Source of the DNA: Mytilus edulis
Lineage: Eukaryota
NCBI RefSeq assembly: GCF_963676685.1
Contig: NC_092353.1
Span: forward strand, 16,368,001-16,432,000
Direction: 5' to 3'
DNA: 64,000 bases
Below, one piece after another: positions 2,413 through 53,479 of this stretch. A model generated the notes under the pieces. The model was not told the origin of the DNA. It searched no databases and saw only the letters and a program-made list of their open reading frames with translations. Position numbers and translations under genes: made by a program. Numbering within the stretch: position 1 is the stretch's first letter; every line of letters begins with the position of its first letter.

Positions 2413-4842
2413 CTTTCGGTGTAGTACAACCAAAAAATCTGTGTCCTTTAGATTGGGCAGAGTTTAAAGGTGAATGTTTGTTCTTCGCTAAAGATGGCAG
2501 AAGCTGGATCGATGCTCAGGTAATGATACAAATATCAATAATAAATGTTTGACTTTTTAATATAAGCAAAGTGCAAACAACTTACACTTCTGTCAACCTA
2601 TCATATCACTTGATACCCATGCTGGTATCACCATTCACGTATCTTTTAATGCTTAAGTATTGGTTTGCTTTTACATTGATGCGGAAATTTGTTTCCCAGA
2701 CATTATAACTGATTCTCAAACATTAATTAAGTTTTCAATGTTTTATTCTGAAAGCAACAATTTCAATTTATACACAGATGTTCCTTAAGCATGTTTAGTT
2801 TTTGAAATAAACATTCCAATAAACAAAATTCACGTTGATGTCTGTCAATTTCATATGGCACTAGACTCATATTTGATCACAATGTATTTTGCGACAGTAT
2901 TTATTATTGTAATTTATTTCTAATAGAGAGATTGCAGAAGCAGAGGAGCATACTTGGCATCAGATGACAATCCTGACAAACATAACTTCATGCGACAAGT
3001 GATGAGTGCCCTTAAAAGTAAGACTGAAAAAATCATCTGTAAAACATTCAATTAAAACCAACCTTTATGTCAACCTAATACCATATTGTTTTGCGTGGGA
3101 GTTCATTGTGTTCAAGCCGTTTGTTTTCTTAACACATTGTTGGTTATATAATTGAATTTTATGCTACTGTGATACACGTGAGAGGTTTTGCTAGCTATTA
3201 AATCAGGTTTAATCCACGATTTTCCACACAGTCAGGAATACGACAGTTGTTATCAATTCGTTTGCTGTGTTTGAGAGTTTGATTTTGTCATTATGTTGCT
3301 TATAATATGCTTTCAGAATTTTCTTCAGTATTTTTATCACTATATTTTTGGTAGAAAGCAAAAGTATAACAAACAAGAAATAGATGAAACTACATTTATA
3401 CAAATACAGATAGAAAGGGGAAATCCGTTTACGCATTCACTCTGTACCTACCATATCGGTTAGAGAGAACAAAATCTATCGATGCTAAAAAATCTCAACA
3501 ATTCATTTATAGAATACCGAAAAAAAAATACCAATTGAAAATAAGAGATGGAGGGAATTGCTTAAATTTAAAAGGAATTATATACGGCATTCATAATTCC
3601 ATTATTTAGCTTAAATTTGTCTTTTGTTCAAATTATTTCCAATTTGAAAACATTATACTCATCTTATTGTAACAGGTTATTCTATCCATGTGTTGGTAAA
3701 CCTTAGCTTATTATACTTAAATCTTTCAGTTCTGATTGCTTTGTTTGATATAATGTTGGTGTATTGTTGGGTGGTTTTTTTTAAGAAGAATCGGATTATT
3801 TGACCATCCCCTCTGGTATCTTTCGTCCCTCTTTTAAAGATTTTGACAACATAGAACGGGATGAATAATTCTCAAATATTCAACAAAATGTATAAAAAAA
3901 ATTGCTACATATGATTTTATTAATATCCTTTAAAAAAGGCTTTTTTCTCCGATAGCTTTTAACATAGATGGATTTTATTTGGGTTCCGATGATTTTGCCT
4001 TTGAGGGTACATGGAGATGGATGGAAACTGGCTTCCCAGTCTCGTCCTTTACTGCATGGGGCTCAGGCATGCCTCAAGGCGAGGACGGCCATAATTGTAT
4101 GAAATTTAGCTGGGAGAATAACGAAGCTGTTTGGGTTGACGAGGATTGTAATCAACGACGTCATTATATATGCGAAAAACAGTAAGTTCGGATTTTGATA
4201 AGCATTAAAATCGAGAATGGAAACGGGGAATGTGTCAAAGAGACAACAACCCGAACGAAGAGCAGAAAACAGCCGAAGGTCATTAAAGGGTAATTAATTC
4301 AGCGAAAAAATCCCGCACCCGAAGGCGTGCTTTAGTTGGCCTCTAAACAAAAATATGTACTAGTTTAGTGATAATGGACTCCGAAATATATACATAAACT
4401 AAAATTATAAAACTACAAGACTAATAAAATAAAGGCCACAGGCTACTGGCTTGGATTTTTAAGTATTGTTTATTTCACAGTTTATACAACTTCTCGTGAA
4501 AAGTTGACATCAGATTAAATTAGATATTCTTTTATGTCCCTTTTGATCATTTGGCTCCTAACGTTGCTTCGTATTTTTACATTTAGGTTTGAGCGTTCCT
4601 GATAAGGTAAAGCAAGAACACCCATAGCTTTCAAATGTTTGGATATGAGCATTCTGATGCGTTACTACTTCTCTGTTAATGTAATGCTACCTCACAGAAA
4701 TTGGGGGATCACAAAAACAAATCGACTGATATGTATCAAACATTATTTAACACAATAATTTTTATATCTCAAACTAAAATGCAGTTATTTATATTTCAGA
4801 GCAATTGATTTTAGAAATAACACACAGATCATTGGTAGATAG
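2413..4842 (+). CDS. C-type lectin 1 (perlucin-like), 5'-partial; signal-peptide exon not found in window
   Basis: GT-AG exons 2413-2519, 2927-3017, 3956-4181, 4800-4842 join in frame: ..CPLDWAEFKGECLFFAKDGRSWIDAQ/RDCRSRGAYLASDDNPDKHNF../..FYLGSDDFAFEGTWRWMETG..WGSGMPQGEDGHNC..WVDEDCNQRRHYICEK/QAIDFRNNTQIIGR*. Six CTLD cysteines. AATAAA at 4871. Confidence 0.9.
4205..4455 (+). repeat. Dispersed repeat family C (GAGAATGGAAACGGGGAATGTGTCAAAGAGACAACAACCCG...)
   Basis: Related copies at about 30590-30640, 49310-49420 (-), 50528-50765, 55045-55203 (-). Confidence 0.8.
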
Positions 4843-5431
4843 AAGTACAGAGCCGTGATCTTACGTTTTCAATAAATTATGTGTTTGGCATGGTATTAAT
4901 ATGTTTAATTTATTTACTGAATGATTGTTAGTTACTTACAGACCAGTGGAAACTATAACATGATTTTCAGAAAAAGAAAACCTTAAAAAAATATGACACA
5001 AGGATTAAACGTGCAAAGGAGAGACTGTAACTCGAAAGGGTCAATACTGTGCAATATCAGGAATTAAACCTTCCTACAACTTACAACTTGTCGCTTGATT
5101 AAGATCTTTAACGGGCAAATAGGTGCAATTCTCTTCATATATGACTGGTTTTCTCTGAATGTGTTTTTCGTATATTTATCACCCCAAACACGTATTTTAA
5201 AATCGCTTAGTTACTCTTTCACTGACGTATAACCAGCATTTGTCGTACATAGTTTCTGATTCACTTATAAATGGATGTAATAATTTTATCATGATTTTGA
5301 AAAGATGACAACAATCAGCTTATATGTGTACATGTAGTCACATCATTATGATTTATAGTCTATGTGCAAGATTTCGCCACCATCAATCATGCCTTTTATT
5401 TTTTTAAATATATATTACATCCAAATAGTTT

Positions 5432-7882: not shown

Positions 7883-9721
7883 TTTTTAATGAATTTGTTT
7901 CACAAACCACACCTCTTTTGGGGAGATGTATAATATTCATAGATGTTTTGTATAGTTTACCCACTGGTTCCCAGATATGATCTTTATGTTACCGGTTTAA
8001 ATACACATATATAATGGCAAAATTGAATTCTGATTGAGACCCAAAGTGAATTGAAGTGTACTACAGGATTAAAGAATCAGTTTTAACTCTTAAACGCTCG
8101 TGCAAATTGTTTTTAATATAAGTCCCACAGCCCTATAGTTTAACATTTTTAAACAATAGTATTACATATGAGTTTTCTATTCTAGGATATTCCTTTTACG
8201 AAACTTCAAATTAAAGTGGCATAGTTGAATTCATAATCGGAATTTATATGGGAAAATGCATTGTTTATATTTACAGACGTCCTACATATTTACATTCGAT
8301 TTAATGATAGATTAATTACATCAAACCACATCGACTTCTTTTGAAAAAAACACATGCCATCAATATAAATCAACAAATTACACGCGAAATAATGCATCAG
8401 ATAGCATTTTTTTTTTAAGTATTAGTTATTTCAAAAATTCAAATAATCCAAACAAGGAGTGACACATGTAAACATCGTTTGCACGCTACAACTCACTTGT
8501 TTTCTAGTTCTAGACCAAATATTGAATTATTTCTAATCACAGGGGATGAGTAATATGTACCGAAAAGTTTCACGCTCAGCGTATATAATATTAGTGCTGC
8601 CAAACGAAAAGATTCGGAAATCGCTTTCACATGTTACACTTAACAACCTACGATTCTTAAGTGCTAGACCATATATTTAAAGCTTTCCATATCAGATACA
8701 AAAAATGAATAGTGCGTAACGAGTGCAGTTTACAATCCAATCTATTTTCATGAACAAACAAGAAAAACAAAAAAAATCACACATCAACTTAATCGCTTCC
8801 AACATTTTCACCATTTTCTTTTAGTTTAACTACTGTTTTTCTCCTAGGCAATGGAAAACAAATGTGACCCAAAAAACCTAGGTATTTTCATAAATATGCA
8901 TCTCAAAAACACATTTGCCAAATCAATTTCAATTTTTGAAACTTTAAATACAATTTACATAATGTTTAAAATAATGTGTTTTCCTGTAGAAAAAAACAAT
9001 TACTTAATACTTGGTTCACTACGTTTTTTATCAATTTTCTTTAAATCGGTCTGTCTAAAAAAGATTTCATCCATGAACATGCAACTATTTTGAACTTTAG
9101 CATCAAATATCCTTCATGTATCATTATCATTTCGATTAAAGTATGAATAACCATTTCTCTATCATATTTATGTGCCGCTCCCATACACACATCTATATAT
9201 GTATATAATTCTATATATCGACTAAAATCGAAAAATTATTAAATATTTCCTCTTCCTTGGACTATACAAAACTTGCCTAAAGTTTACAACTTATTCAGTA
9301 TAACAATTATTTCCGAAATACTGTAGCATAATGATGCATTATGAAAACGACTTCGGTAGTGTTCAACTTACAAAAAAATGCAGGAATAAAACGGACACAA
9401 GTTCAATGAAAGCAAATTAATCAATTGAACCAGAAGCACATTATTACTCTGAGATAGAAACAAACAATGAAGAAAAACTGGAATTGCCTGTTAGAGGAGA
9501 CCAGAAGTGTTACTTCATTTCTAGCAATAGAAAGAAAGTTGCTCTGGTTGTGACTAGTAGTATAGTTATCTCCATAATATCAGTTGTTTGGTTGTTTAGT
9601 CACAGTACAAAGGACAACAAAGGTATAAATTATTATTTAAAAATTAACGGTTTAATATTTTGTTAAGCGTATGAAGAGTCACATAGCATATTTGTTGTAT
9701 TTGATTAACTATCATACTTAA

Positions 9722-10242
9722 AGTCATATGAAAACTCAAATTTAAAAAATGAGGCATATGTTTTTATTACAAAATGGATAGTTGTCTTCATAAACTTTTT
9801 TTGAAGAAAATTATTGAATTTGTCAACATTTTGAAGAAGTTTACTTTTTCTAATTGCTTGCTTCCAGGAAGCAAATCGCCGACATATGTTCCGTATTCAA
9901 AGTGACCTTAGCGTGACTCTCTCGTAAAGATCCGGTGATCGCAATACGCATGAATCTGTCACTGAAAAAAAACTTTTATCTGATTGTACATGTTATACAC
10001 GTGTTCATTATCCATGCTTCTTTGTTTGTTGTTTACTATAAGGTGACAATCGGCAAACTACGGCTTAAAAATATTTGTTCACTTCATAACAGACAAAGAG
10101 GGGAAAATGACGATTATACGATATTTTTGCATAAAAAAAATGATAAAAACGTGCACAGAAGAATAAGTTTATGATATACACACACATTGGTTCAATAGTT
10201 GGATAAACATTTTTGTTAACCAGTCACTCGTTTCATATGACT
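9722..10242. mobile_element. MITE with short TIRs, Kolobok-like (TTAA target)
   Basis: TTAA|AGTCATATGAAA ... TTTCATATGACT|TCAA (right TSD has one mismatch). Confidence 0.6.
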
Positions 10243-11234
10243 TCAAACATCTTATCCAACATATGTTTATTACCACCTGGTGAAATAATCTTTTTCCTGA
10301 ATTCCAGATTGCTTATATATAAGCATCCTTAAATATATTGAAAAGATTGACCACGTTGACCAAAATACATTTTGTAATGAAGCGCGGGAGCACTTCATTC
10401 CAAACATTTTTTCGCACGGTCAACGCTTTAAAGCCTTATAAAATTGCTAAACGAAGCAAGCAATGCTTATAATTACATGTTATGCTAGGTTCATGAAACG
10501 ATTACTACTGGGTTTTTTTTCTTTTATTTATATGTGCACTTTATTGTGGACGCTCGTGTCATCATGATCGATACATTTCTTTTTAAATTGTAGATTACAT
10601 TCAGTATACCGCGATATTGTTGTTAGCCAAATAACGTATAATGACTTAACATACATGCAATGTTATTATTTATCACTTATGGCGGAGTCATTTTACTGTG
10701 CGCAACTATTTTCAGAAAGTTTATTTATCATATTCAACAACTCAATGCTTGTCGATTTATAGACCTCAGCCAATACCACGTTTACATGTTTTTGTAATTT
10801 AATTTAGGGACAGATTCTCTCAAACACACAACGTTTGCACCCAATACAACGCTCGACGTTGACTGTGTAAACAAAACGAAACAGATCAACTGCAGGGACT
10901 GTTCAAACTTTCAGGTACATGTTATGTAATTGGTATGACATATCTCGATCGATAAAACTTGATTATGTAAGGTGTTATTATGGCTATACCACCATTACTT
11001 TTAATCCAAAGAAAAAGTGTCTAAAATATATACTAATATTAAGTTCTAAAACGGTCATATTAAATTGCATGATCGCTAGAAAGTCTGGTTTTTAGCTTAC
11101 TGATTCGATTCGGATCCAAAAATGTTTTATGTTGTCTAGACATTTAATACCCCATCTCCTTATTAATATTTTTAAATACGGTAAAATCAGATTATAGGAA
11201 ATATCTCTCCTTTCTCATTCATGACATAATAGAA

Positions 11235-11750
11235 AAAATAAACGACAAAGAAAGGCAATTTATCCAAACACTACAGAAAGACTAAGCAGTAAAAACCCAA
11301 GATAAAAACCATGGGGATATCATTTGATCCATATGGGTAAATATACCCCGCTACATACGAGACACCCAGTAATTACATATTCGTTGATATAAGTCTCATT
11401 CCGTGATGTCATAATCAAGGCAAAAAGACAGGAAAACGTCTAGAACAATGGGGACATATCCGTAGTCGTCTAGGACAAGATAAACAACAACGTTCGACCA
11501 TCGCAACATAGCGGTCGTGAAACTTACAAAGGGAACACTTCAACTTGATTAATAATTATAATGGTTAAATGGCTTCTTTTCAAGCAGCAATGCTGTTTTA
11601 ATGTAATCCTGTTAGAGAAGGAAAGCCCATAATATCGTATCAACTGAAAGATGTATACTTCAAGCGCTGTTAGAATATTGCTATGATATAGAAATGTAAT
11701 TTTAACAATTAAAAAACTGAAATTATCTTTTTCGTTATAGAGTCTTGTTT
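11235..11750 (-). mobile_element. Older, degenerate copy of the same Penelope-like 3' end
   Basis: Colinear similarity to 6330-6890 (e.g. AATATCGTATCAACTG, CTGAAATTATCTTTTTCGTTATAGAGT, AGCAGCAA). Confidence 0.55.
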
Positions 11751-14700
11751 TTTATTTCATTTATTTGGAGTTCGATGAGATATATGACATCACCAGTAAG
11801 ACATTTTAGTATCATGTTGATCAACCCAGTCTCGCTTCTTTTGAGGTTCACTACATTTCCGCTTTTTTTTTATCTTGATTTGTCTACTTTGTAAATCAAT
11901 GTTACATGCATTTAGCGAATGAATGTACATATATAGGAACGTGAAGTTTAAGGATATTGCTAGGATCTTTTCATTTTTTTAGTAAAGGTTCTGTATAAAG
12001 TACTCTCGAATGGAAAAAAAATACATCAAGAGCGGCACAGTTGGTTTTCATAGGACAGCTGATTATATGTTGAAAACACATCCTTCAAACACAATAAAGA
12101 TTATGTCAAACAAACAATCAATCATCTTCGTGATAGATATGTTTCAGATAAATTATTGTTTATCAGAGTATTTATTATATCCCTTCCTAAAACAGGATAT
12201 TTGTATGTACATTAGTCAGCCTTTCTTTTTTCAAGCAAAGTTGATCAAATTTATTCAATCTTTATTTAAGAATAGAATTGATTAGGAAAACTTTTGTAAA
12301 TGATAGAGAAAAAAAAAGTTTATTATTTTACTGCAAAAGGAAAGCGATTTAGGTTGAATGTTTCTAACAGATCTACGGAATTTTTCAAATATGATTCACA
12401 TCATGGCAAAAAAGGCAGTTTTACAAAAGCTCTGAACCTGGCTAGTATTACCGATAACAGATATGTTCGTAATTGGGAAAGAGTTTACAAGAATTATGAG
12501 GCAGTAATTCGTTTATTTGGGCAATACAGTTTTGACTTGTATTTTTTGACAATATATTATTTCATTTTTACAATATTTCAGATAAACTGATTAATAAGAT
12601 TTAGCCTACAGATGTTGAGTGTGCTCCACTTTGAGATACAAGTAACCTTAAACTTTTCAAATTATCAATTCTAGGTGTCTAAAGCAATCATGTGCTGTAA
12701 TGAAAATGAGTGCAAAGATAGTACCACCACAAATGCAAACAAGATAGTCCAAACTGTTACTGAGCCTACAGTCATTATAACCGGTAAAAAAGTTATGCAT
12801 TTGATAAAAACACGATTGTGAGGGTTTGTTTTCCTTTTTTTTTTTTTTTTTAATTTAAGTGGTTATGTTTAGAAAAAAATGAAACCAACTTCATATGTAC
12901 TTTGTATAATTGGTATAAATTGCAGTTAGGCTGTGTTGTAGTAGAATCAAATACAACACAATGCTTATTATCAAGCTTTTGAAATTAAGAATTATACCAT
13001 TTTGAATTGCTCGGTGAAATTCATTTTGGAATTCATAAGAACGAAGTCACACTGTTATTACTTATCAGTTGTCAAATTACATTTTAGAATTGTATCAGTT
13101 GATATTGCACACTACTGTACTTTTTAGAAACATATATATGCAGTCTCTGTTAAAACCCTAACCTCTACATGTCTAAATATAGCAACAATTATCATTTAAT
13201 CTATCTAGGCGTGGTGTATTTATGTACTCACTATTTAAACTTATGTACACGCTAATAAGTGTTAAACAATATTTTTTATATTTTTTATATTCTATTCGTG
13301 CAATATTTCGCTAAACAAATTACCTCCATCATGTAATACGATATACTTTCGATAAACATTTCTCTGTTTATACCTGTTGCAGATAAATTTTAATATATTT
13401 GAAATCTTAATTTGTGGTGTTTTAAACTAATTATATCAATATTTTTCTTCTTTTTTTTTTTTTTTTGGTTTAAGGAAAATGTGAGAAAACAAGCTGCTTA
13501 AATGGAGGTGTGTGTATTGTATTTGGTAACAACACCCTTTGTCAATGTAGTTCGCAATACTTTGGAAATAAATGTCAGTTGACAGGTAAATATAAATCTA
13601 GTACTGAACAGACTATGCAACAAATCAAAATAGCCAAATATGACCATGTGTTAGCTTGCAATATTCCTGGAATTACATTTGCAATATTGTTTGTAAATAT
13701 TACCATAAACAATATCTTAACAGGAAAATATAATCATGGCACATACACTTAACACAGGATAATAAATGCGGTTATGCATATCAATCATATCCGGTATGAG
13801 TTAGAATCATTGTAAACGTGCAATGCATTCCTGTGTGAAAAGTTCCTGCTTTTTAAGTACATATTGAACTATGGAATGCAGAAATCGGTCAAAAATAGAC
13901 ATGGCTTTAAAAAATTACTGATGGCTCCGGACATATTGATCTACTACTTAAAGGGACTGTCAAATTCATGTTCATCGATTTGACTCAAATTCGATTGATA
14001 ACAATGTAAAACATTTATCCAAATAATGAAAAATCTAAAGTCTAAAATAAACAATATACCAGACATGGGCTCAAAAATATGAAGCTTTGTTTCGAGTATG
14101 TTTTAGTCTAGACACCATCTAATTAACTGCCGAGTTAACCTCCGAATACCTCCGATTGCCATATAAGCGATATAAACATAAATAAAGATATAAATAGAAT
14201 TCAGACTCACTCATTTGGATTTTCTAGGTCTGTTAAATTTCGTATTATAGATTAAATCTATATGTTAATAATCGTTTTTACCTGTATAAGAATGATTTGT
14301 TTTGTGGATCGAATCAGTCAATCAAATCATTAACCTTTATTTCACTTTTAATAATCACATTCTTTTCCTTTAAATTATTGAACTCGCACAATGCATGTGG
14401 TATCCATCACCAGCTAAGGGGTTAAATTGATGTTCAAATGAATACGGATTCAATGACGTCGAATAATTCACTTGCAAGTGAATAATTAATCATCAATATT
14501 TCTTAGCTTTTTGAGAAATTGAACCATACTGGCTGCTAAAAGAGATATATTATTTCACTTTGTCACTTTCATTAATGATTGTACAAGAAAAAAAATCATA
14601 TTTGATATTTTTTATATATCTCGTAGCTAATGCACCGTAAAGTAAAGTACAGTAAAACAACGTATAATGGTAAATAAGTAAATAAAAGCTAACGTATTAT

Positions 14701-14770
14701 GAATATCAATTAATAGGAATTATCATATTAATATTTTGCTATTCCAAATTGGTTATTATAATTATTCCAG

Positions 14771-15996
14771 AACATAAAGGAACCCAGTTTCTTTTGGTGA
14801 TTCCAGAGCAGTATAGTAGTGGCATGCCAAGCTTAAGATCTAAAGTGTTAATCGCAACTGACAATTCAACGTTGATTTGGGTCTATTATTCTAAATCACG
14901 AATACATTCATCAACATTCATCCATATTTCAGAACCATACTATTATCCAGAGACAAATCTAGTAACACGTGATGGTTACAATACAGCCGGAATTGAAGTT
15001 AGCTCTGAAGTTCCAATGTCAATGTACGGTTTTATTCAGAACGACTGGGATGACAACAGTGAAGGATTTTTGGCTTTCCCAGTACACTATGCGGCAAAAT
15101 CCTACATCGTTCCCTCATTTACCGTTTCCAAATTAAGAGGTTTTTCGGTTTTTTCACCTTTGGAATCGGATACTAAAATTCAGATAAATCTGAAAATGAA
15201 GTCCGGCTCGTTGGTTTTTCACAAAGTAACGTACAAAAACAAAGATACAATACAAATTGTACTTCAAAAACACGAAACCTTTCAACTTTCACATTCATCT
15301 GACCTAACAGGAACATTGGTCACTGCAAACAAACGATTTCTTTTAATTAGTGGAAATGTTTGCAGTTACATAATAAACATAGGAGGATGCAATCCATTCA
15401 TTGAAATGGTTTTACCAATAAATCAACTCGATAAATTCTCTGTAATACCAAAAATAGTAACACGCCATACATGTACTGTTCGGATATTGGCTGTAAATTT
15501 CACCATTGTTAAAATTAAACTTGGTGAACATCTTATTGAAGTAGAATTACAAGCGAGGCAATTTCATGATTTCAGTTATACTGATAGTTCAAGTGTATCG
15601 GCTTCAGATGATATAATGGTAATCGTGTTTCCTCATGAAGAAGCAAGCACTCGCTCAAATTCATTCATGATGACCATACATGGAACCAATCAGTTTTTAA
15701 ATGAATATTTATTTGTTGTACCTGAGGGTTTTACAAGCTTTCTAAGTGTTGTTGTCGAGACGGTAGATACCGATGGCTTCGTTCTTGATGACATGTCAGT
15801 CACAAATGATTTATTCGATCGCCAATCAATAATATCAGAGTCAATGATTTTTAGTACTTTCTCAATAAGAGTAAAAAGTGGTAGGCACAAGTTCACCCAT
15901 TTGAAAGGTACATTTTTCGGATTGTGGGTGTATGGGAATGCCTGGTATGATGGTTACGGATATCCTGCAGGATTAGCAATGAAAACACATGTGTAG
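14771..15996 (+). CDS. Terminal exon encoding IgGFc-binding protein N-terminal-type domain (FCGBP-like)
   Basis: Long open exon after acceptor ttccag. Family-typical motifs GTQFLLVIP, SEGFLAFP, LQKHETFQL, DLTGTLVTANK..ISGNVC, FIEMVLP, FGLWVYG..YDGYGYPAG. Confidence 0.9.
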
Positions 15997-17488: not shown

Positions 17489-20400
17489 ATGGATAAGATG
17501 ATTCTATGTTTGTTTACATTTGTTATCGGTAAGAGTAGCATTTATCCTTCGTGAGATTTTTTTCTATCACGCAGAATCACATTAAGACATTAAGGTTGCG
17601 GTTATATTTTTATATGCTCAATATTTAATGTTAGTGAATTGTTTTGCAGGAAAAAATACAAAGGACACCATATTTGGATTAGTAAAAAATACATTCTGTC
17701 CTATATAAGAAACTTCATTCGCTTTAATGAATTCGTGATCTTCCTGAATGCCAACTGTTGTTGTGGAACATAACTGCACTTTTGCGTATACAATAGATCT
17801 CTCAAATAAATAAGTATATTTGATAAAGTTTAGTTTTCAATTTTGATTTTAATAGTATTTACTTAGGAAGATATATCTTGTGAAATGCAAGCCTTGTGAG
17901 CAATACTTCTAGATCGATTTTCCTCCGTTTCTTGGTGGGGTCAAAGTTCATAGATCAATAGTTTTTATGTAGTGATTTGTAGGTTAAGACCAATAGTTTT
18001 GACATACAGAGAGCCTAGTATATTTATCAACTCAAACAGTCCTTTCAGTACGGATTGTACCGCCGAATGATCATATGTCTATTCCCTGTTAACCATTCAA
18101 GAAGTGTTAGTATTATCGTTGCTGATTGATTATAGTTCAACAAAAAACCTTAGATTAAAAATAAACATCGTTGAAAAGGTACTAGTGCTGACAAATGGGA
18201 TGCTGGGCAATACTATGGTCAGGTACTTGATAATTCAACGACAGCAGCATTGATACAAAGAAAAAGTAAATTTACAATAATACCAATCTCCAATGAAAAT
18301 TCGAATCGGAAAGTCCTTTGTTAAATTTTAAAATCAAAAGCTCAATAACATCTAAAAGAACGATCATATTCCTGACTTGGTACAGGCATTTTTGTATGTA
18401 GAAAATAGTGGATTAAATCTTGTTTTAAAGCCAGCAAAACCTCTAACTTGAATGTATTATATGAACAAACACACATATTACTAGGTAAAAATGTCAATAT
18501 TTGTGGTAAACTTCTCATAGTTATAAACAAGCAAACATGTCAACAGAGAAAAACATAAGAGATAAGAATGCAATACAGTCAATAGTGAAATAACACAACG
18601 GTGGGATATATAAATACCGAGCCACGGCAATATACTTATAACGAGTTATTAAAAATATTTAAATTTAAATGTCAACTACTTTCAGGATTAGCTTTTGTGT
18701 CTTGTATCTCTAAATGCCCAAAGGACTGGGCAGAATATCGTGGCGAATGTTTTCTGTTTAGTATTGACAGAAGGACTTGGGTTGACGCACAAGTAAGTTT
18801 TTATTTAAAACAAATCTATTCTTTTGCAAATTGTTTATTGCTTTTGTATTTACATTGTATCATAGATCAAATGTGTTCATTCAGTGTATATTCACTCGTT
18901 TGTGTTACTATGTCTTTTTATTCAGTTTAGCCATTTCACTATTGTTTCAGGTAAAATTGAAGGTTGGTACCTACCGAAGCGTTCAAACCCGCTGCATTTG
19001 TTTGTATCCATCTCAAGTCAAGAGCCTGATATTCAGTGTTTGTCGTTTGGTGATGTGGTTCATAAGTGTTTCTCGTGTTTCGTTTTAATGACCGACACTA
19101 TGAATTATTTTGCCGACACAAATAACTTTAAATAGAACTATAAGATTGCATGTATATCATTAATGCATAAATACTGTAATTGCTTTGTCATATTTGAATA
19201 CTATAATATGTCGTTAGGTATAGGTTTGGTTTTAAAAATACTAACAGTATAGAGCACACTTTTTAAGGCAATTCTATTTTTTTCATTTAAATAATGCCTA
19301 TGTTACCTTATTGAAACAATTCAACTAGTTGGTTGTCGTTTGTTTATCTGTTACATATTTGTTTTTCGTTCATTTTTAATTATTTAAATGAGGCCGTTAG
19401 TTTTCTCGTTTGAATTGTTTTACAATGTCATATCGGGGCCTTTTATAGCTGAGTTTGCGGTATGGGCTTTGCTCATTGTTGAAGGCCGTACGGTGACCTA
19501 TATTTGTTAATGTCTGTGTCTTCTTGGTCTCTTGTGGACAGTTGTCTTATTGGCAATCATACCACATCTTCTTGTTTATAGTTACATAAAAATTGTTTGT
19601 TCGAATTTTTTTACTTTGTTTAGAAAAACTGTCGAACTCATCAGGCGTATTTGGTAACAGATGACAATGCAGAAAAACACAATTTTATTAGACAAATTCT
19701 CAGTGTCTTAGACGGTAAATATAACATGTAGATAACACACCACCAAGACAGTAACTCAACCCCAATAAAATTTGTAAACATATAGAGGTCGTTTTAAATA
19801 TATGCCTTCCATCAGGACATTACTCTATTACTAAATATTTGTCTAAAACAATCTATAGATTTACTATACTACGAATTATAAAAAAAGAAAACTTAAACTC
19901 ATTAGTCGTAAACAAAGTGATAACTCAAAGCCAAATGAACGAAACACGACCAAAAGACAAACAACAGTATACAAAATACAACATAAAACCTAACAATTAG
20001 CCAACATGAACCCAACCAAAAGCCTGGAGATGGGGAGTGATCTCATGCGTTCCATGAGGGTACGTAGATTTCTCCCAACATGTAATACCCTCGTGTTACT
20101 CCTGTACGTTTTATCAAATGATCAGATATCATAAGATAGAAAATTCCTAGACCGATTCATTAAAGATCGCTCGAAGGGCCAATGTGAACGCTTTAAATCG
20201 ATCATAACTGAAACAAATAAAGAGGTAGTTTACTTTAAGTCGATCTAGAGTGAAACCGATCTTACATCAAATGTGAACGCATAGATCGGTTTAAACTAGT
20301 ACGATTTAATCGAAAATAACGTATGCGCTTGTATAGCGGCATAACTATCCCAGAGGTTGGATCTTTAACAAATGCTATATTTCAAAACCAATTGAAAACA

Positions 20401-22177
20401 TGTTCAATGTTTTCGCCGTAGAATATATTTGCGAAATCTGTGTCTTCTTTTCTTATGCTGATTTGTTTTTCTTTTCAGGAACCGCAGTATTTATTCATGT
20501 TGTAACTTCGTTGCTACAGTTATTCTTCTTTTTTCGAAATTAAAGAAAACTGCAATAACACCAATATCAAAATTTGTATTAAGCATGTGATTCAAGAAAA
20601 ACAATAACTTTATCCACAAGTGTGTGTAACAGTGTATTAACACATCAATTTCATAAACCAGTTTTATTTATACACAATGTTTACAGTTTTATGAATAAAA
20701 AGGTTAAATGAATTGCGGTTTTGATTGCAGTGTGAACACAAAAGAGATCGTTATTATTAAAGATAATGTGAACGCTAACTTGTTTTGTTTAGATTGATTG
20801 AAATGAGATCAACTAAAAAAAGCTAGTGTAAAAGGGGTCTAAGTGACTGTTATCTAATCCCAATTCATCTCTAATTAAATAAACCATCGGTAAAAAAAGA
20901 ATGCTTCTGAAGAGTAGGCAGATCCTACTCCACATGTTGCACACTTAGTAATATTTTATGTATATATATATATATATGTATAAACTACTAATCAGTTTTA
21001 AATGAGTTCTTTAAAATAAATGCATAATACAACAATTTCATATACAACATCTTCTACATTATATGATCCATATAATATCTAAACATAACTACACCCCTTG
21101 ATAAAACTATTTGGTACATATATTTAGTCAACTTCACTCTTCGCCAGTTAATCAGCCTCATACAAAATTGTATGTAAATTTTCTGGCATTGACCTTATAT
21201 TGTATATATGCCACAGTGTTAAAACTTTCTTTTTCTTTATTTTTGCCGAAGTTAAAGTCAACAAAGATACGAATCTGTCTTATTCTAATGGAAGATATTA
21301 AACATTACTTTCAGGAGAAAGAATTCAGAACTTTTTTGTTGGAGCAACAGATCAAGCATTTGAAGGAGAGTGGCGTTGGTTAGAAACTGGTGTCCCACTT
21401 AAAGGTTACACAGCCTGGGGACCAGGAAAACCAGAACATAATGCCACACTTGCCAACAAACAGAACTGTTTGATGTATTACTGGGTTGATGATGACGTGT
21501 TTTGGACTGACCACGATTGTTCTGATAGACATGTTCATTTCATCTGTGAAAAACAGTAAGTACCAGAATTAAAATCGTATAATCAAGATTTTCCATTCTT
21601 GAAAAAAAACCATTAAAATGGAAGAGTCAACTATACATATATTTGTTTCGTGTAAAATTTTATGATGATTTTCACGTTTACACATTTACTTTCACATGAA
21701 TGAAGATACGGTCCTTTATTGTCGTGCACTTTGTGTTGTGTTATAAATATATAGGCGAGTATTTAAAAAGGTAAAAAATTTTTAAAAACCTGAACAATTT
21801 AGTACACCTCTTACGAATACAGTTGCATAATCTGCAGTCTTTGAAAAAGTATATCCGTCAACATTGAAAACATTTACATATATGAAATGTATATCGCTCT
21901 TTCTTTTTTGATTTAATACGTGCATTTCAGTTCCTATACACGTCAACATTATATTTTCAAGCAAGACGACTTTTGGTTTGATAAACATTTATAAATGTTT
22001 TTTCTATAAAAACATTGATTAACCAAGACGATTTCGTTGCTTATTATATTTACCGAGCCTGGTATCCGGGTTTTTTAACACTTTAATGTATCTTAAATAA
22101 CAGAAATGTATTTAAAGTTTTCAAACATTTTTTTCAGGGCTACAGATTTTCAAAATAATACACAGATTATCGGATAA
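17489..22177 (+). CDS. C-type lectin 2 (perlucin-like), secreted, 172 aa
   Basis: Exons 17489-17528, 18686-18792, 19624-19714, 21315-21555, 22138-22177 (519 nt, in frame). Signal peptide MDKMILCLFTFVIGLAFVSC; CPKDW..EC; FVGATDQAFEGEWRW; KPE and WTD motifs; ends ATDFQNNTQIIG*. Confidence 0.93.
20148..20841. mobile_element. Harbinger-like MITE in intron 3 of lectin 2
   Basis: Imperfect TIRs TAGACCGATTCA / TGTAAAAGGGGTCTA; repeated AATGTGAACGC motif. Appears to interrupt a Penelope-type 3' remnant (about 19890-20100 and 20905-20945). Confidence 0.45.
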
Positions 22178-32103: not shown

Positions 32104-32420
32104 CAGTACTGTTTTTGACAGTACTGTTTCATTACTGATTTTGACAGGACTGTTTCAGTACTGATTTTGACAGTACTGTTTCAGGACTGATTTTAATAGT
32201 ACTGTTTCAGGACTTATTTCGTCAGTACTGTTTCAGTACTGATTTTGACAGTACTGTTTCAGTTCTGTTTTTGTCAGTACTGTTCCAGTACTGTTTCAGT
32301 GCTGATTTTGTCAGTACTGATTCAGTTCTGATTTCGTCAGTACTGTGACAGTACTGATTTCGTCAGAAATGTTTCAGTACTGATTTTGTCAGTAGTGTTT
32401 CAGTGCTGATTTTGTACTGT
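32104..32420 (+). repeat. Left subterminal tandem array, 26-bp unit GACAGTACTGTTTCAGTACTGATTTT (about 12 copies)
   Basis: Directly visible; each unit has two CAGTACTG palindromes. Confidence 0.95.
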
Positions 32421-33178: not shown

Positions 33179-36061
33179 TTAATTAACCAGTCCAATATGA
33201 ACTCTAGCCGGGCCAATATGAAGATTGAAAATAGTGTGAAAATCTGACATTCAGGACTTCAATAGTAGTGATTTGAATATGTATCAATGAAAATTGAGGA
33301 TTTTAATCAAAACAATAAAATAGTAACAATTTTATTAAATAATCAACAGTAAATAAACACAACAAGTAAAAAACATGTTTTTATCTAGTTTTCAGATTAA
33401 AGCTCTTGGCTGCAGTTTATAGTATTCTTTCTTTCCCCTGAGTATATGTTAATATTGAAAACACCACCTGTTATAGTTGCACCTGCAAACATGGCCATTG
33501 GGTTGTCATGTTTGTTAGCAGTTTGATTATTTGTATTTGATACATTTGCATTTAAATTATTATGAACTAATGTATTTGAGTTTGAAAGTTCACAAGGTTC
33601 CTCTGAATCTGATGTCGTCTGTAAATCTGAGTTCGGCAACATGACCTTAGATATTGTGTGAGAAGCTTGTTGCTGTTGTTCAATAGACGGTACTGAATAA
33701 TGAGTTAAGGTAATAATGCCTTTCCAGCCTCCTAATTGAGCAACTTCATTGGCAGGTCTACCATTTTGAAGTAGTGTGGTAGCAAAAGTTTTACGTCCCG
33801 AATGATTAACCTTTCTTCCTTGAAGATCTCCTTTTTCTGCCATATTTTTTACCATTTTACCTAATTTATCTTTGCCTATGGTTTGGCGAGTGTACCATAT
33901 TTCCTCATGTTTATTATCTAAAGGCCTCAAATAAAATCTATGTTCATCAGTTAATGTGTCTTGAGGTCTATGCCGTTTGTATTCCTTGTAAACATGAATA
34001 GGGCAATTACTTCCTCCTTCCCCGAAAATCTTTGGCGTAATATCCCGGAAATCCCTGCTTTTTGCTCCACTACGGGTTTTGGTGCTTCTTTCTGAAAAAA
34101 GTATGCTTATGTCAATATTTAAAGAAGAATTATCCTTCCTGTCTGTACAAAACTTTCACTTTTATATAACAAAAAACATGTATTGCATAGTAAATAAGAT
34201 TTGTTTTGATAAATATAAAACAATGGTTAATATCCTTAAAAGCACAAATTACCAACTTTTGTCAGGACTGTTGTACATGTACATCCATTATCCACAGAAG
34301 TATATATTCTGTGATTTCTAAAAGATTTAAAATATCAACTATTTAAATGATGGAAATCATAACATAATCTCACCATTAAATTCCAAATACTCCTTTCCAT
34401 CAGATGTAGCTTTTAACTTGACATCTCCCCATGTCATGTTAACATGGTCTTGTCGACCTCGTAGACCAAAGTATGTTGCATTATTTAAAAACACAGCATT
34501 CAGTAATGCATCAGGGTTTTCTGGAAAAAGAAAAAAAAAAGAACTTAACTAAAATACATGTATCTTAATGTAAATATCCAACTTAAAATAGTATTTAAAG
34601 GACAAATACTGTATCAAAATGCAAAAGACCTCTGGAGACACTCTCATTGTTCAAGACCTTATGTGTATTTTAAACATTTTTTATTAGAACAACCATTTAA
34701 TAATCAGGGATGGATAGAGGGCGACAAGGAAATAAAATAATTTGTTTGCCACAAGGTTAGAAAAATGTTTAATTAAAAGTTACTGACTGACACGCTGGAA
34801 TACAACATTTTTTTTAAACTTACGTGTTCCAATAACGCCTTTCTCCCTCAAGATTTGGATTTCCTCAGTCGTCAAAGGTTCAGCTCTGTTTGGCTTACTG
34901 CCCTTGCCCAATGACTTTAATGCCTTTCGCTTCGCTTCTAATACCCGTCTTGTGTGGTTGAACTCAGGATCCTTTTTAATACTGAAACATTAAAGAAAAG
35001 ATATGCATAATATCTGACATGTAATTTTTGCATGTACATGTTTTATACTTATAGCAAAGAGAAACCAAGGAATATTCATTGTACACAAGCTTAAGATCAT
35101 CAAAACCACATTGACCCAGATGATATATATAGTTTTTACCAAAAAAAATGACACAAGGCTAAAATTAAAATATTGGCACTGAATATTCGAGTCATAATGC
35201 TTGACAGAATAATGCAAAGGCTATCATGCTATATCAAGACAAGGGAGTTACATGTCTCACAGATATCAAATAATCTACATGAAAATAATCGTACCTTATA
35301 CTACTTTTTGAGTCCTTCAAATGTCTATCCAAGCTGTTGAACATAGAGGATAAAGAGTCAGGCTCATATTCGTCACCATTTTTCTTCAGGACTCCAAGAA
35401 AAAATCTTGATAACAGACTGTCCAAGTCTTTGGCAGGTATTTCCACTGAATCACGCATTTCTCCAACAGATATGAAAAAATCCAGCATCACTTTCAAGTC
35501 ACTCTTTGTTTTAGTTTTTGTGTTCTTGTTAACACTTAAAGCTAGAAAAGAGTCAGTGTCTTCATCAGTGACAGAGCGAAACCTCTTGCTACTCGAGCTA
35601 TTTTCTTTGTCTGATTCGTCAATCTCATGATTCTGTGCATTTTCAATGTCCTGCAGAATTTCATTTGGGAAGTTGAAATTCGCTGAATCAACTTCTTCCA
35701 GAATCAAATTTCCTTCCCCATTGACATCCGCGAGATTTCTCTTGATGTACTCTGCCTCCCTATTAGATAAATCGTCGTAGTGAAAATAGTCTTCAACTAA
35801 CGCATCCATCGCATCATCTATATTTTTTATAGAGCTATTGCTCCATCGTTTTGTTGTCATTTTCTCCTGTCAGACGACACTCGCCGTAGTTCTCTAGAGT
35901 TATCGGGATTTCAACCGATTAGTCTAGAGCTAATCGAATATGCTAATATTGGGCTTGCTAAACCCGGGCCAATACGGAAAAATCCGTATTGGCCTTATAG
36001 GACAAAATTATCGATTTGGCAGTTTTACTCGTATTTAGTCAAATAAGCTCCAGTTAATTAA
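33179..36061 (-). mobile_element. Crypton (tyrosine-recombinase DNA transposon), apparently full length
   Basis: YR gene bracketed by TTAATTAA at 33179-33186 and 36054-36061. CCAATA-containing motifs near both ends, including hairpin GGCCAATACGGA-AAAA-TCCGTATTGGCC at 35967-35994. Lies inside another transposon. Confidence 0.8.
33397..35860 (-). CDS. Crypton-type tyrosine recombinase (DUF3504 / KIAA1958-ZMYM-like), 521 aa, 4 exons
   Basis: Minus-strand exons 35860-35295, 34981-34824, 34520-34374, 34091-33397 (1566 nt), all GT-AG, no internal stop. Motifs: KNTKTKT..D, LDSLLSRFF..KKNGDEYEPDSL, LEAKRKALKSLGKG.KPNRAEPLT, FGLRGRQDH, ERSTKTRSG, CPIHVYKEY, WYTRQTIG, NHSGRKT, LGGWK..LTHY. Confidence 0.93.
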
Positions 36062-43057: not shown

Positions 43058-43400
43058 TGAAACAGTACTGACGAAATCAGCACTGAAACAGTGCTGTCAA
43101 AATCAGTACTGAAACAGTACTGACAAAATCAGAACTGAAACAGTACTGTCTAAATCAGTACTGAAACAGTACTGACGAAATCAGTGCTGAAACAGTACTG
43201 TCAAAATCAGTACTGAAACAGTATAGTCAAAATCAGTACTGAAACAGTTCTGACGAAATCATTGCTGACACAGTACTGTCAAAATCAGTACTGAAACAGT
43301 ACTGTCAAAATCATTACTAAAACAGTACTGTCAAAATCAGTACTGAAACAGTACTGTCAAAATCAGTACTGAAACAGTACTGTCAAAAACAGTACTGAAT
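43058..43400 (-). repeat. Right subterminal tandem array, reverse complement of the left 26-bp unit (about 13 copies)
   Basis: CAGTACTGTCAAAATCAGTACTGAAA repeated head to tail. Confidence 0.95.
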
Positions 43401-47807: not shown

Positions 47808-50800
47808 ATGGGAAATCTTACTTTGCATCTATTGTTATGCGTCTTTGTTGGTAAGACTACTAGTTGATTATAATTCTAGATTAACTTAATTCGCATATAT
47901 TTCTTGTGCAGTAAATTTACATAAACACAATATAAGTTCAAAACTGTTATTGTTGTACAAGCTCGTCCTATTTTGTAAACTTTGAAACCTTTGATGTTGT
48001 TTGACAATTTTTACAGGTGATTATAAACATAACATCTGTTATTCTATGTTAAATCTTTGTAATGCTATTCTGAAGTCATTGCTACTAGGCTACTAAGAAA
48101 TTATATAAGGATATTCTTTAAATCAAATTGTCATTGAAGAAGTCCCAGAGAAAAACAAGATTTCGAAGTGTGATAGATTATACACAATAGTGTTGTGACG
48201 TATAGAAAGCACGTGGTGTCATAACAAGGAATTGTAATCACATTGAAATACATTTTTTCGAAATTCAGTCGTGTGGATTTTGTTTAAAAATAAGATAGTA
48301 TTGCAGTGAACAAGTTTGTTCTAATGATTTGAAAATTAGAGACCAATGGCTTCGTTTTTGCCCTCTAAATCAGTTAAATTTGTGTGATGTATGAATAAAA
48401 TACAAAAAATGATAACAGAAATTAAATACTGAACACTGCATCAAATATCCATACTTGGGACTATCATGAAAATATACAACAAACAATGACTTAACAATAT
48501 CAATTTAATCTTCAAAATGTAACGTTTCTCGTTTTTCATTTCAAAGCATAGTTTTTTAGTGTACTATGGCATGTTATTTCTACGACAAGCTGTATAATCA
48601 GCTGCGGAAAGATAGAGGGTAGAGATCAAAGAGACAAAACGCATCAAAACACAAAAGATAAAAAAAAGGCATCATGGCTCGCTTTATTTTGAAAGTGACT
48701 GTCTGATAGAGTGCATTCTTCGGACGTTTACGTTTCGTTTAGCTGTATTTTTATTGCATTTACATGTCCGAGAATATTTTTTATGAATCCATTAAGATAC
48801 TGACACTTCCGGAATAAATGATAGTTGATGTATGCATAGAAAAGCTGCTTATATAATTTTTCAAAATGTATATTTAGCATTGATTGTTCATACCAGAAAT
48901 GGGCAAATTACGGGTTCAAGAAATACATGTACAATAACACCATCATGTTATCTGGTCGTCATTTTTCTTATATGAACTTTATAATTATTCACAGTTATTT
49001 GTACTGCAAAATGTCCGAAAGACTGGGCGGAAGTTGGAAATGAGTGTTTGATGTTTAGTTATGATCGTAACACATGGAGCGGCGCACAGGTTTAATATTT
49101 AAATCAAAACACAAATATAAAAAAAAACAGATACCAAAAAAGAAGTCCGTGATGATTTACACCCCGAAAGACGAATAGCCTCCTTATTACATTTTAAAAC
49201 TATATTTTCTCTCAAAAATATATTAAAGTCATGTTCACATTGTTCGCACCTTTCGTTGTTAGAGTTTTTACAAATATCTATATAGTTAGCTTAGTGAATT
49301 CAGTCACTGAACTATTATACATATTTGTTTAGGGGTCAGCTCAAGGATGCCTCCGGGTACGGGAGTTTCTCGCTGCATTGAAGACCCATCGGTCTCTTTG
49401 ACACATTCCATTCTCAATTTTATTTTCGTCTAAATAAAGAGTTGTTTTGAGAATATTTATTGTTAAATGATGCTCTCTTTGTTCTGTGTGTTTTCTCCCT
49501 TTTTTTAATGGTATAAATTCTGTATCTAGAAAAATGATAAGATCAAATGCTTAATAGGGTTCTTGATCATCAATGGTACATCATTAATCAAGGTCCCTTT
49601 GTCATTGATTATTAAATATATCTATTCATTCGTAGACTATGATGAAAAGCTTTAAACAGTAATTAAATTTTGAATTTGATATAGTAGTCTTTTGTCTGCG
49701 TTGTTCACTCTTACAAGGTTATGAATTTGATGTGGGTATTTGTCATACTAAAGATAATAATATATGGAAGAGGTTTTCGTCATTATAAAGGAAACAATTT
49801 ACATGTAGTCCGGGATTAAAACCTCGGATGGTTTTACTACATGTATCATAAATAGATCAGTGTCAACAATGATATTACTTATTTCATACAAAACAATGTT
49901 TTAAAAATCAATGTAAAATTTCAATGAAAACGTATTTGTTTTGTTTAATTCAAGTGAAATTCACGTTATAAAATCATGTGAATCTCCATTCACGTGAAAT
50001 CAGAATGAAAATTCCCACATCATTTTCACGAATATAAGTTCATGTGAAATTTGCCTGTCTGATTTATGTAAAATTCATATGTTATATTAAAATTTTGTCT
50101 TTGGCAATTCATAATTTTACTATAACAACAATACTGGAAGTGATTAACGACCTTAACTGAGTAATTTGCCTCTATAAAGGGGGGACAATTTAGTTTCGAA
50201 ACTATATAGTTGGGATCACATATTACTTCTTTTAAGAACTGACAGACATTTTTTAATAGAACTACATGTACATATATGTTAAAACAGTATTTTTTAAGAA
50301 CGATTCCAATGTAGGACTGTCAAAATATTTTAATTGAGTAAAACTGTCAGAGTCTGTTCTGGAAAAGAACTGTCCGATAGGAAAATAAAAAGATGTAGTA
50401 TTATTGCCAATGAAACAACTCTCTATCAGATATCATCTATAGGTCACCATTAGGCCTTCAAAAGTTACCTATAGTGTTCCTGTTTATTATTTGGTATGCA
50501 AATAGGACGAAAATTAATTGATTTGGATAAAACTGAGAACGGAAATGGGGAATATGTCAAAGAGACAAAGTCTCGACCAAAGAGAAAAAAAAACAGTCGA
50601 ATTCCACCAATAGGTCTTCAACAGAAAATCCCGCACCCGTAGGCAGGATTAAGCTGGCCCTACCAAGCAATGTGTACTAGTTCAGTGAAAATGAAAGACA
50701 TATTAAACTTTAAAACTTCGAAATGAACTAAAACTAAAAACAATACAAGATTAACAAAGGCCAGAATGTATTTTTCAGTTCCGTTGTTTGTTTCGTATAT

Positions 50801-53479
50801 TATTTTGTCATATCAACCGATTTACTGAACCCGTTGGGTTTTTCGTTTGAATTGTTTTAAATTTTGTCACGTCATTATCCTTTTTTGGTTACAGAAACTA
50901 TATAGTATGAAAATGACAATTTTAAATTCAAAACAATACTTTAATGAACAATTTACTTTTAGGCGTTTTGCAGATCACAACTATCATATCTTGCATCAGA
51001 TGACACCGCTGCTAAGCATACTTTTATCAGACAAGCTCTTAGTGTGCTAGACGGTTCGTATACTTTTCAAACATTCAACGAATATAAAGTCGCACGTTAA
51101 TGAAAATTAAGCGTGCAAAATTGCATTCACGTTGCCTTATAATGGATTTTAAATTGACAAAAGACGCAAATCTCATTTACTTCATTGTTTATGTTTTTTC
51201 ATCTTATAGTGGATGTGTTTTCCTCGGTTTTAGTTTGGAAGCCGGATTTGATTTCTCTCAATCAATTTATGACTTACAAACAGCGGTATACTACTGTTGC
51301 CTTTCAAAAAACCTTTCGACATCTTACAGTAACATCGACAGCGTCAATTACATCATTCAAGAAATCTAAATACGAAAGCTGACCGATTACTTGTGACAAC
51401 TTAACACGTCCAACCAACGGCAAGTTAAAAAGTTTGAAGGTCGTACTTTAACCTATAGTTCAATTGATTACTTCTTATTAATTGTTATTTGGATGGAGAG
51501 TTGTCTCATTGTCACTCATACCACATCTTATTTCTATTGAACACGTATCGGTGCATTTTTAAACATTGCTAAACTTGAACTTTGCATATAACTTCGTATT
51601 ACATTTATTACATTTGAAAGTAATTTACTTTACTTAGGTTTACTTAGGCTCTTTACTGGTTTACTAAAGTTCTTCTACATCAGTCTCTATATCTAAATCT
51701 TCTCCACTTCCGGTGATTTTTTATTTGTAGTCTTCGTACACCATTGTTTGGTTCTTCCAGTGTTTTTCTAGTCTATTCTGAAATGTATTTTTGGTTGGTG
51801 ATGTCACTTGATTTCTGGTAGTGTGTTCCATGTTCTCACCACTCGCAGAGCAAAGGCATTCCTCCTTAATTCTGTTCTTGCTCTCTGTTGAAATGTTTTC
51901 AGACTTTTGCCGCGTATCCCTGTTCGTGTAGTCATATCCTTCCATAATTTAACAAATTGTGCCGCCTCTTTATCATATTTTCCGTTCAGTAGTTTATATA
52001 ATTCAATCATGTCACCTCGGACCCGTTTAAAATTTAGAGATGGTAGTTTTAATTTTTGCAGTCTTTCTGGGTATGTTTAATTTTTGAATCCTGGTAGTTG
52101 TTTAGTTGCCCGGCGCTGCACATTGTCAATCATGTCAAAATATTTTATTTTATATGGATGCCATACTGAGCTTGCAAACTCTAAATGTGTTCTTACGAGT
52201 GTCTTGTATAATGGTATAAAGTATCTGTATCTAAATATTGGAAAGTCCTTCTCAGTAGTGCAAACATGGAATTTGCATATGCAAAGAGGTATACGTCGGA
52301 ATCAAAATTGGAAGGTCATTTATGAAAATTACAAAAAGCACATATCCTTGAGGTATACCTGAAGTTACTTTTGATCATGATGCTGCTTTATTGTTTATTG
52401 AAAAATGTTGTATCCTGTCACTTAGAAAAAACTATCGATCCAATTCAGATCTGAAAGTTCTGTGCCATATGCTCTGAGTTTGTTGATTAGTCTTTTGGGC
52501 GGAACAGTGTCGAATGCTTTCATATAGTCTATGTAAATAACATCGATAGATTTCCCATTATCAAGGGCTTCTAGCCATTTGTCCAATACATTTAAAATTT
52601 GAATAATGTAGATCTGTCTGATATAAATCCATAGTGAAGATCAAATCTTTCATTTTTGGTATATTATAATAATCACTGTGATATAAACATGAATGTCTCT
52701 TTTTCTTCACTAGGTGCGAAAATAAAGGATTTTTTTATCGGTGGAAACGACCGAGTCTTTGAAGGTCAGTGGCGTTGGTTGGAGACTGGCATGCCAATTA
52801 CTAAATTTACAGCTTGGGCTCCAAACAGTCCATCAACAAATATGACACTGGCAATGAAGCAAAATTGTATGATGTTGACATGGGTGGACAATGACGTGTA
52901 TTGGACTGACCACGACTGTTCTGACCGTAGAGGACATTTCATTTGTGAAAAGCCGTAAGCATTTTTTTACATAACGTTACGGAAATATTGCGTGTAGACA
53001 ATACGAATGCCGTATCAACTGTAATAAACGATCAACAGATTCAAAAACATTCATTTACGCGAAAACACATCTTACTTTACAACACAAAAAAAGAAAGGAG
53101 TGGAGTGAAGATGTTGTTTGAAAAGTTATGTGGGGAAACCCTTGCTAATACCGTTTTGATTTAGTTAAGGAATTTCGGTTATTTATAAGCACATAACCTC
53201 GGACTTGCCTTCATTCCTCCCTATTGGATAATAGAATGATCGTTACACGTGACAAAAGCGCTTATCAAATAAATGTATCTTACGTATAAATTATCATTGT
53301 TCACGACAAAGTGACTGGCTACAGAAAACACCGAAAATTACACACATTTTTACATTTTATTTATGTGAGTTGGTATAAGCAATCAAGAAAAAAGGTTTTG
53401 CAAATGATAGATTTAATTGATTCTTCAATTGTATCTTTTCAGGGTGTCTTCCGTCACTAGCGCACCAGTAGTCGGTTGA
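47808..53479 (+). CDS. C-type lectin 4 (perlucin-like), secreted, 168 aa
   Basis: Exons 47808-47850, 48995-49089, 50963-51053, 52714-52954, 53443-53479 (507 nt). MGNLTLHLLLCVFVVICTAKCPKDW..; FIGGNDRVFEGQWRW; SPS and WTD motifs; ends PVSSVTSAPVVG*. AATAAA at 53501. Confidence 0.92.
51623..52635 (-). mobile_element. CR1-clade LINE 3' fragment in intron 3 of lectin 4, internally deleted and frameshifted
   Basis: Minus strand encodes VLDKWLEALDNGKSIDVIYIDYMKAFDTVP.., LYKTLVRTHLEFASSVWHPY, VQRRATKQLPG, YPERLQKLKLPSL..RGDMIELYK, RRNAFALRVVRTWNTLP. AAGTA-type microsatellite tail near 51623-51646. Confidence 0.9.

Follow-up and report, generated by a model that had tools for sequence, protein, structure and literature searches.

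Four C-type lectin-like genes in one stretch of Mytilus edulis DNA end alike, and the locus raises the question of what this common end does. The stretch (the window) covers 64,000 nucleotides of contig NC_092353.1 in assembly GCF_963676685.1, positions 16,368,001 to 16,432,000 of the forward strand. Each gene closes with a last exon encoding two hydrophobic residues, a Gly and a stop, with up to two Arg before the stop. The same tail was found on other bivalve lectins and on members of the triple-C1q and trypsin-like families. We read it tentatively, with somewhat less than even confidence, as a family-crossing tag that would be trimmed, amidated by PAM and read by a partner for sorting or storage.

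The four lectin genes and their last exons

All four genes lie on the forward strand. Gene 1 (2088–4842; exons 2088–2124, 2413–2519, 2927–3017, 3956–4181 and 4800–4842; XP_071136668.1) is a GT-AG model with an open frame and encodes a putatively secreted protein of 167 residues with a single C-type lectin domain. The coding part of its last exon (4800–4842) ends in IIGR-stop (motif 4828–4842), with AATAAA at 4871. Gene 2 (17489–22177; exons 17489–17528, 18686–18792, 19624–19714, 21315–21555 and 22138–22177; 172 residues; XP_071138099.1), whose joints were found in RNA contigs, ends in IIG-stop (coding part 22138–22177, motif 22166–22177), with ATTAAA at 22204. The IIGRR-stop end belongs to gene 3 (24853–29111; exons 24853–24892, 26610–26716, 27335–27425, 28131–28371 and 29066–29111; 174 residues; XP_071138100.1); the coding part of the last exon is 29066–29111, the motif 29094–29111, and AATAAA stands at 29163 and 29467. 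Gene 4 (47808–53479; exons 47808–47850, 48995–49089, 50963–51053, 52714–52954 and 53443–53479; 168 residues; XP_071138102.1) has a Ser/Thr-rich linker and a VVG-stop end (coding part 53443–53479, motif 53468–53479), followed by AATAAA at 53501. A sequence-only reading of this DNA had reported these four termini, each on a separate last exon, and all were present as reported.

The exon layout was common to the four genes. A phase-2 GT-AG intron links the lectin-domain exon to the last exon in every case, the coding length of the last exon is 37–46 bases, and a poly(A) signal (AATAAA or ATTAAA) lies 21–51 bases past each stop. The pattern [IV][IV]G[KR]{0,2}-stop had seven six-frame matches within the window, four being the lectin termini and three chance matches. 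Since the bare motif occurs by chance, the weight of the observation rests on its position and on genes outside the window.

Pfam Lectin_C was matched by gene 2 (E 4.8e-16), its Cys and Trp core was invariant in the lectin alignment, and the solved-structure relatives had C-type lectin folds throughout, among the 60 matches listed. All four proteins start with a hydrophobic stretch of about 20 residues, as judged by eye. The canonical sugar-site motifs are EPN or QPD, and WND. The corresponding positions in the window proteins read MPQ, KPE, KPE and SPS, together with WVD or WTD, and depart from the canonical Ca-dependent site. By sequence the four domains are lectin-like, with sugar binding putative at most. 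The four proteins equal RefSeq models labelled Mytilus edulis perlucin-like or CLEC17A-like, which are predictions and not independent of the window gene models.

The sequence-only reading depended on transcripts that include the last exon, and this was borne out for three genes. Five read runs were used, three of them RNA by guess only, and the splicing evidence covers genes 2, 3 and 4. The joint 28371 to 29066 of gene 3 was found in RNA contigs of 4/4 runs, and RNA contigs contained all four joints of the gene. The joint 21555 to 22138 of gene 2 was found in RNA contigs of one of four runs. The joint 52954 to 53443 of gene 4 was likewise found in one of four, and all four gene 4 joints were found in RNA contigs. 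Gene 4 contigs in three of the four runs end where the domain exon ends and are uninformative. One gene 4 contig carried a single synonymous change, in the second Val codon of VVG. Gene 3 contigs extend 276–459 bases into the last exon, reaching 29341–29524, and the last exon of gene 4 runs for 148 bases in RNA contigs. A micro-exon is a whole exon of about 50 bases or less. The earlier description of a dedicated micro-exon did not hold, as the exon is 3'-terminal with an untranslated region and extends over 148 bases (gene 4) to 276–459 bases (gene 3) in the contigs.

Recurrence of the tag in bivalve lectins and on other folds

Three lectin paralogues (L019, L020 and L021) lie just upstream of the window on the minus strand, head-to-head with the four window genes, in a cluster of at least seven genes. 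Two of the three end in IIG on the same kind of exon. A lectin copy 63 Mb away ends in IFG. The dispersed paralogue L017 (records P0005-P0007 and P0020-P0023), which has a cysteine-rich extension at its N-terminus, ends in IFG.

A search with one lectin exon gave 132 matches in the M. edulis genome. The motif was present within 1.5 kb at 6 of the 22 best unlinked loci. Within 6 kb it was present at 15/39 readable further loci, versus 1–6/39 for each of seven control residues replacing Gly; the 39 came from a set of 40, namely 14 of the 16 loci that had been negative and the 26 that followed in rank. Under stricter criteria, which also asked for a poly(A) signal, an [IV][IVLF]G end was found at 14 of 23 unlinked loci with the phase-2 donor, versus at most one locus for any other residue in the place of Gly, I, H and S having one each (Fisher p 7.5e-5, which overstates independence because some of the loci are tandem kin). 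The only residue after Gly among these 23 genomic loci was one K.

Codon use was compared among 24 tails. The first, second and third positions drew on six, seven and three different codons, and each of the three stop codons occurred. This variety indicates that the constraint acts on the protein and that the tail is not a repeated DNA element. The NxT sequon noted before is present in three of the four window genes; the glycosylated linker that was drawn from it was not supported as a design element. Among the 24 tails only two window genes and one unlinked gene (L113) have the sequon. On a lectin-exon tree the tag was scattered, with 13 changes versus a shuffled mean of 17.2. The tree (51 lectin exons, 68 columns, 15/48 branches starred) is poorly resolved, L014 and L027 dropped out, and L024 and L039 were scored as tail-less solely from short flanks. 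The lectin tag may have had one origin with later losses.

Homologous protein records were compared across bivalves, whose orders represented here split several hundred million years ago. Among the orthologue models, those from oysters end in MIG, VIG or VIGK, and VVGRR is the end of two from scallops. The oyster and scallop linkers are Gly/Ser-rich, unlike those of mussels. The 63 lectin records comprised 28 with the motif, 12 with another tail, 7 that stop at the exon end, 5 with an intron-like read-on and 11 without the domain end. Several motif-less records look like gene models without their last exon. The tag is easily missed because many gene models drop or misread that exon. A protein atlas gave no usable match to the scallop tail. 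The Gly was followed by nothing in 19 of the 28 motif-bearing records, by RR in four, by R in three and by K in two; the records are redundant and represent about five separate extension events. No non-basic extension after Gly was found in 85 protein records. The conserved hydrophobic-hydrophobic-Gly core and the restriction to K or R after it, both first noted in the four window genes, were thus upheld in every out-of-sample case (85 records and 23 loci).

The tag was also found outside the lectins. A PIIG end was present at 4/30 C1q loci, all in one triple-C1q gene cluster; the remaining 26 have no residues beyond the domain. Of 22 longer triple-C1q homologues, 18 had the motif at their end, and these came from mussels, oysters, scallops, an ark clam and a venerid clam. 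Two trypsin-like genes are tagged (L253 and L347), one of them found by the PI[IV]G pattern and ending in PIVG. That pattern gave 22 matches versus 11 for its control, comprising four C1q genes, one trypsin gene and others without a family. The first 28 distinct places of another family-blind pattern, acceptor plus [IV]IG-stop plus AATAAA, included 9 behind lectin exons and 2 inside C1q exons. A C1q tag on an exon of its own was considered and rejected, since the apparent acceptor is coding and the tag lies within the domain's exon. The sequence-only reading had put the tag on a dedicated micro-exon; a need for such an exon was not supported, because tag and domain share one exon in L025, L129, the C1q genes and the trypsin genes. 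Subsets of at least two unrelated folds, and probably of a third, carry the tag. It is a short motif in a fixed terminal place on unrelated cargo (lectin, triple-C1q and two trypsin-like genes), as would be expected of a lumenal sorting signal.

The tail was placed outside the fold in the predicted structures. In the AlphaFold2 model of gene 2, residues 164–172 had a predicted local distance difference test score (pLDDT) below 50 and no structure (mean pLDDT 70.9). In the triple-C1q model (mean pLDDT 88.1, predicted template modelling score 0.90), values below 50 occurred in two places only, the signal region and the four residues at the end. By these predictions the tag hangs free of the fold, exposed.

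Several further observations were made in these searches. The locus L161 (the same place as L266) has a strong acceptor, a phase-2 exon, an NPIIG end and AATAAA; its upstream exons matched no family, and the gene may represent a further tagged family. An excess of [GADE][IV][IV]G ends (137 versus 58) was discarded, being inflated by a dispersed repeat (11 of 30 loci read). This repeat carries AIIG-stop followed by AATAAA (L289-L291, L301, L302, L310, L311, L314 and L316) and inflates motif counts. Long Lys/Asn-rich basic tails occur on 17 of 39 sampled trypsin-like ends (L356, L358, L362-L364, L368, L370, L372, L373, L377-L380 and L382-L385), so that secreted proteins of the mussel have C-terminal appendages of more than one kind. 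The tag also resembles the mature N-terminus of trypsin-like proteins (IIG, IVG or VVG); this likeness was set aside, as the first residue of the motif has no free amino group at a C-terminus.

Proposed amidation, a putative reading partner and the alternatives

A Gly end followed by basic residues only is the substrate pattern of carboxypeptidase E/D-type trimming and then PAM amidation, and PAM itself requires the Gly alone. Gly, bare or with basic residues only, was the terminus in 4/4 window genes, in the 28 lectin records and among the 23 loci. The tag consists of a variable linker, two hydrophobic residues, Gly and up to two basic residues. A basic carboxypeptidase would strip the K or R after Gly, and PAM would convert the Gly end to an Ile- or Val-amide. 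A partner would then read this end and sort or hold the carriers in secretory granules; PAM itself is a candidate reader. Trimming and amidation would map G, GK, GR and GRR onto one product, which would explain why these ends are interchangeable between paralogues. From the sequence pattern, this part of the reading is judged somewhat probable. Since amidation by PAM asks for nothing beyond the Gly, conservation of the hydrophobic pair suggests that a partner reads the end, and retention of the pair for such a partner seems likely. What these unrelated carriers would most simply have in common is a secretory route; whether the partner would act in secretory sorting or storage rather than outside the cell is judged to be evenly balanced.

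A number of results weigh against this reading. The tail was not found within 25 kb of the third upstream paralogue. One M. galloprovincialis model of the L017-type paralogue ends in IFS, a possible natural loss of Gly, and two oyster models end in VVQ and two in MSSP or MASS, which may be real exceptions. The motif was not present in 4/22 triple-C1q homologues, and none of the 18 motif-bearing ends had a basic extension. Basic extensions are a minority of ends overall, from about five lineages. A single substitution separates each of the codons AAA, AAG, AGA and CGA from a stop, and mutation by itself therefore favours K or R to some degree. Sampled trypsin ends had the motif in 1/39 (after a Pro/Thr linker) and 0/4, some of these read-throughs not being true ends. 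No convincing tag was found at 30 ShK, 30 SUEL and 30 F-type loci read with flanks of 1.5 kb; as many of these genes end further off, the negative is weak. Genome-wide, acceptor plus [IV]IG-stop plus AATAAA gave 36 matches versus 41 for a Pro control, no bulk excess, with family-blind genome patterns being underpowered; G-K/R/Q ends gave 29 versus 33 for a reversed control, without a convincing gene among them. The homologue ends come mostly from predicted gene models. Low terminal pLDDT is common and a weak sign of disorder or enzyme access.

The same ends could also be read with the Gly intact. A lumenal cargo receptor would bind the free-acid Gly end, basic extensions would be trimmed or tolerated, and amidation would be absent or incidental. 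The stop at Gly in 19/28 lectin records and in 18/18 motif-bearing C1q ends fits this view, as does the nearness of K and R codons to stops, and the spread across families suits a sorting label equally. On its own, however, it leaves the total lack of non-basic extensions unexplained. In addition, PAM accepts a C-terminal Gly that lies exposed behind a hydrophobic residue in the secretory pathway, large folded proteins included, according to the accessible parts of reports on proGATI (PMC9351486) and IgG heavy chains (PMC6343775). A Gly-intact end is considered unlikely. An action outside the cell, of an amidated or unmodified tag, would be docking, with a scaffold of mucus, a receptor on the cell surface or another lectin as the target, or signalling in the manner of a short amidated peptide. 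The tag is predicted to be exposed on its linker. In the part of the paper available, small secreted bivalve lectins of the conserved subfamily A are mainly expressed in digestive gland and gill (PMC10140915), the window genes being only candidate members. The amidated proGATI end is itself an active signal in Chlamydomonas, as stated in the available part of PMC6919629. No partner is known for such an action, however, and three unrelated carrier folds are more simply explained by a common intracellular route than by a common outside target. An extracellular role is thought rather unlikely.

Two further explanations leave the tag without a reader. The tail could have a structural role, as a strand packed against its own domain or at an oligomer interface; a pair of beta-branched residues with a Gly would fit a short strand, and oligomer contacts are invisible to single-chain models. 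The same tag nevertheless occurs on lectin, C1q and trypsin folds with linkers of about 4 to 16 residues, neither AlphaFold2 model puts it on the domain, and the K/R-only extensions are left unexplained, so that a strand is very improbable. The tail could finally be a functionless last exon inherited by tandem duplicates, with chance supplying the rest. Most of the tail is indeed common by descent to genes 1–3, three chance matches lie within the window, and genome-wide counts are at control level. Yet the three final residues were retained across bivalve orders although the linkers before them changed, synonymous codons vary, and two unrelated families carry the tag in a different exon layout. 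Shared ancestry and chance are largely refuted by the triple-C1q and strict lectin-locus counts, and this is the least credible of the explanations.

The trimmed, amidated and partner-read tag was compared with known systems. It shares with classic carboxypeptidase E/D and PAM peptide amidation a Gly-ended secreted chain with only removable basic residues beyond. It differs in that the bivalve carriers are folded proteins of 20–50 kDa from several families, no internal cleavage is needed, and a hydrophobic pair before the Gly is conserved from family to family. In Mytilus, trimming and amidation are predicted for myticalins A and B in the available part of PMC12294457. The closest likeness is Chlamydomonas proGATI, a large folded secreted protein from which three Arg are trimmed and whose Ile is amidated (PMC9351486, in part); the Arg-trimmed end is amidated at Ile after a small-residue linker (PMC9351486 and PMC6919629, in part). 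For proGATI, as far as these texts were available, both amidation and activity have been measured, within a single gene family of an alga, whereas the bivalve tag is known from sequences and sits on unrelated folds. The accessible part of PMC6343775 describes C-terminal proline amidation of IgG heavy chains as a minor variant without a known effect on activity. There too a folded secreted Gly-ended protein is amidated, possibly by PAM, but without a conserved hydrophobic pair. PAM was reported, in the available part of bioRxiv 10.1101/2020.03.08.982777, to be a non-catalytic cargo handler for proANP and to be required for granule formation. This resembles the proposed tag in that soluble cargo is routed by PAM, and differs in that proANP is not amidated and a C-terminal motif plays no part.

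Subfamily A of the bivalve C-type lectins (PMC10140915) shares with the window genes a signal-peptide-like start, one Lectin_C domain and oyster and scallop orthologues. A word search of its main text gave no 'C-terminal', 'amid' or 'motif', and its supplement had no match to three accession stems. The tag was not mentioned in the passages available from the bivalve lectin review PMC12842671 and the C1q papers PMC10672478 and PMC6835236. No description of the motif or of amidated bivalve lectins was found in the literature searched, which left subscription journals mostly outside its scope, so that a passing remark in a cloning paper is possible. The amidation signal is already known; no account was found there of its use as a sequence-specific tag common to unrelated folded proteins.

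On what basis regulated secretory granules take in their soluble cargo is an old and unsettled question, and amidation is regarded almost solely as a modification of peptide hormones and toxins. A three-residue tag common to unrelated folded proteins and retained across bivalve orders makes cargo selection and folded-protein amidation directly testable. The tag would also be a sequence marker for functional classes within the lectin and C1q families, both very large in bivalves. A bolder form of the reading, which we regard as doubtful, is a hydrophobic-amide address label of bivalves: unrelated secreted defence and gut proteins, among them numerous C-type lectins, triple-C1q proteins and certain proteases, would each have acquired a PAM-converted hydrophobic-hydrophobic-Gly end, and a dedicated receptor, possibly PAM, would load them into one regulated route. 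If this were true, amidation would be a sorting mark for folded proteins, and the tag a sequence marker for a whole secretory pathway.

Neighbouring features in the window

Between genes 1 and 2, a gene on the forward strand (9421–15996) has an EGF-like exon (13474–13749) and a long IgGFc-binding-domain exon (14686–15996; Pfam E 9.5e-37). This gene does not end in the tag, and in one M. coruscus model (P0049) it is joined with gene 1. Two minus-strand frames at 33397–35869, between genes 3 and 4, have DUF3504, phage-integrase and QRICH1-like matches. They probably represent a Crypton-like tyrosine-recombinase element. The third intron of gene 4 contains broken minus-strand frames (51721–52640) that resemble a reverse-transcriptase fragment by eye; one piece was scanned and had no Pfam match. 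A further gene lies on the forward strand at 57635–62837, with a TSP1 domain at 57635–57859 and exons without a family at 59294–59686 and 62544–62834.

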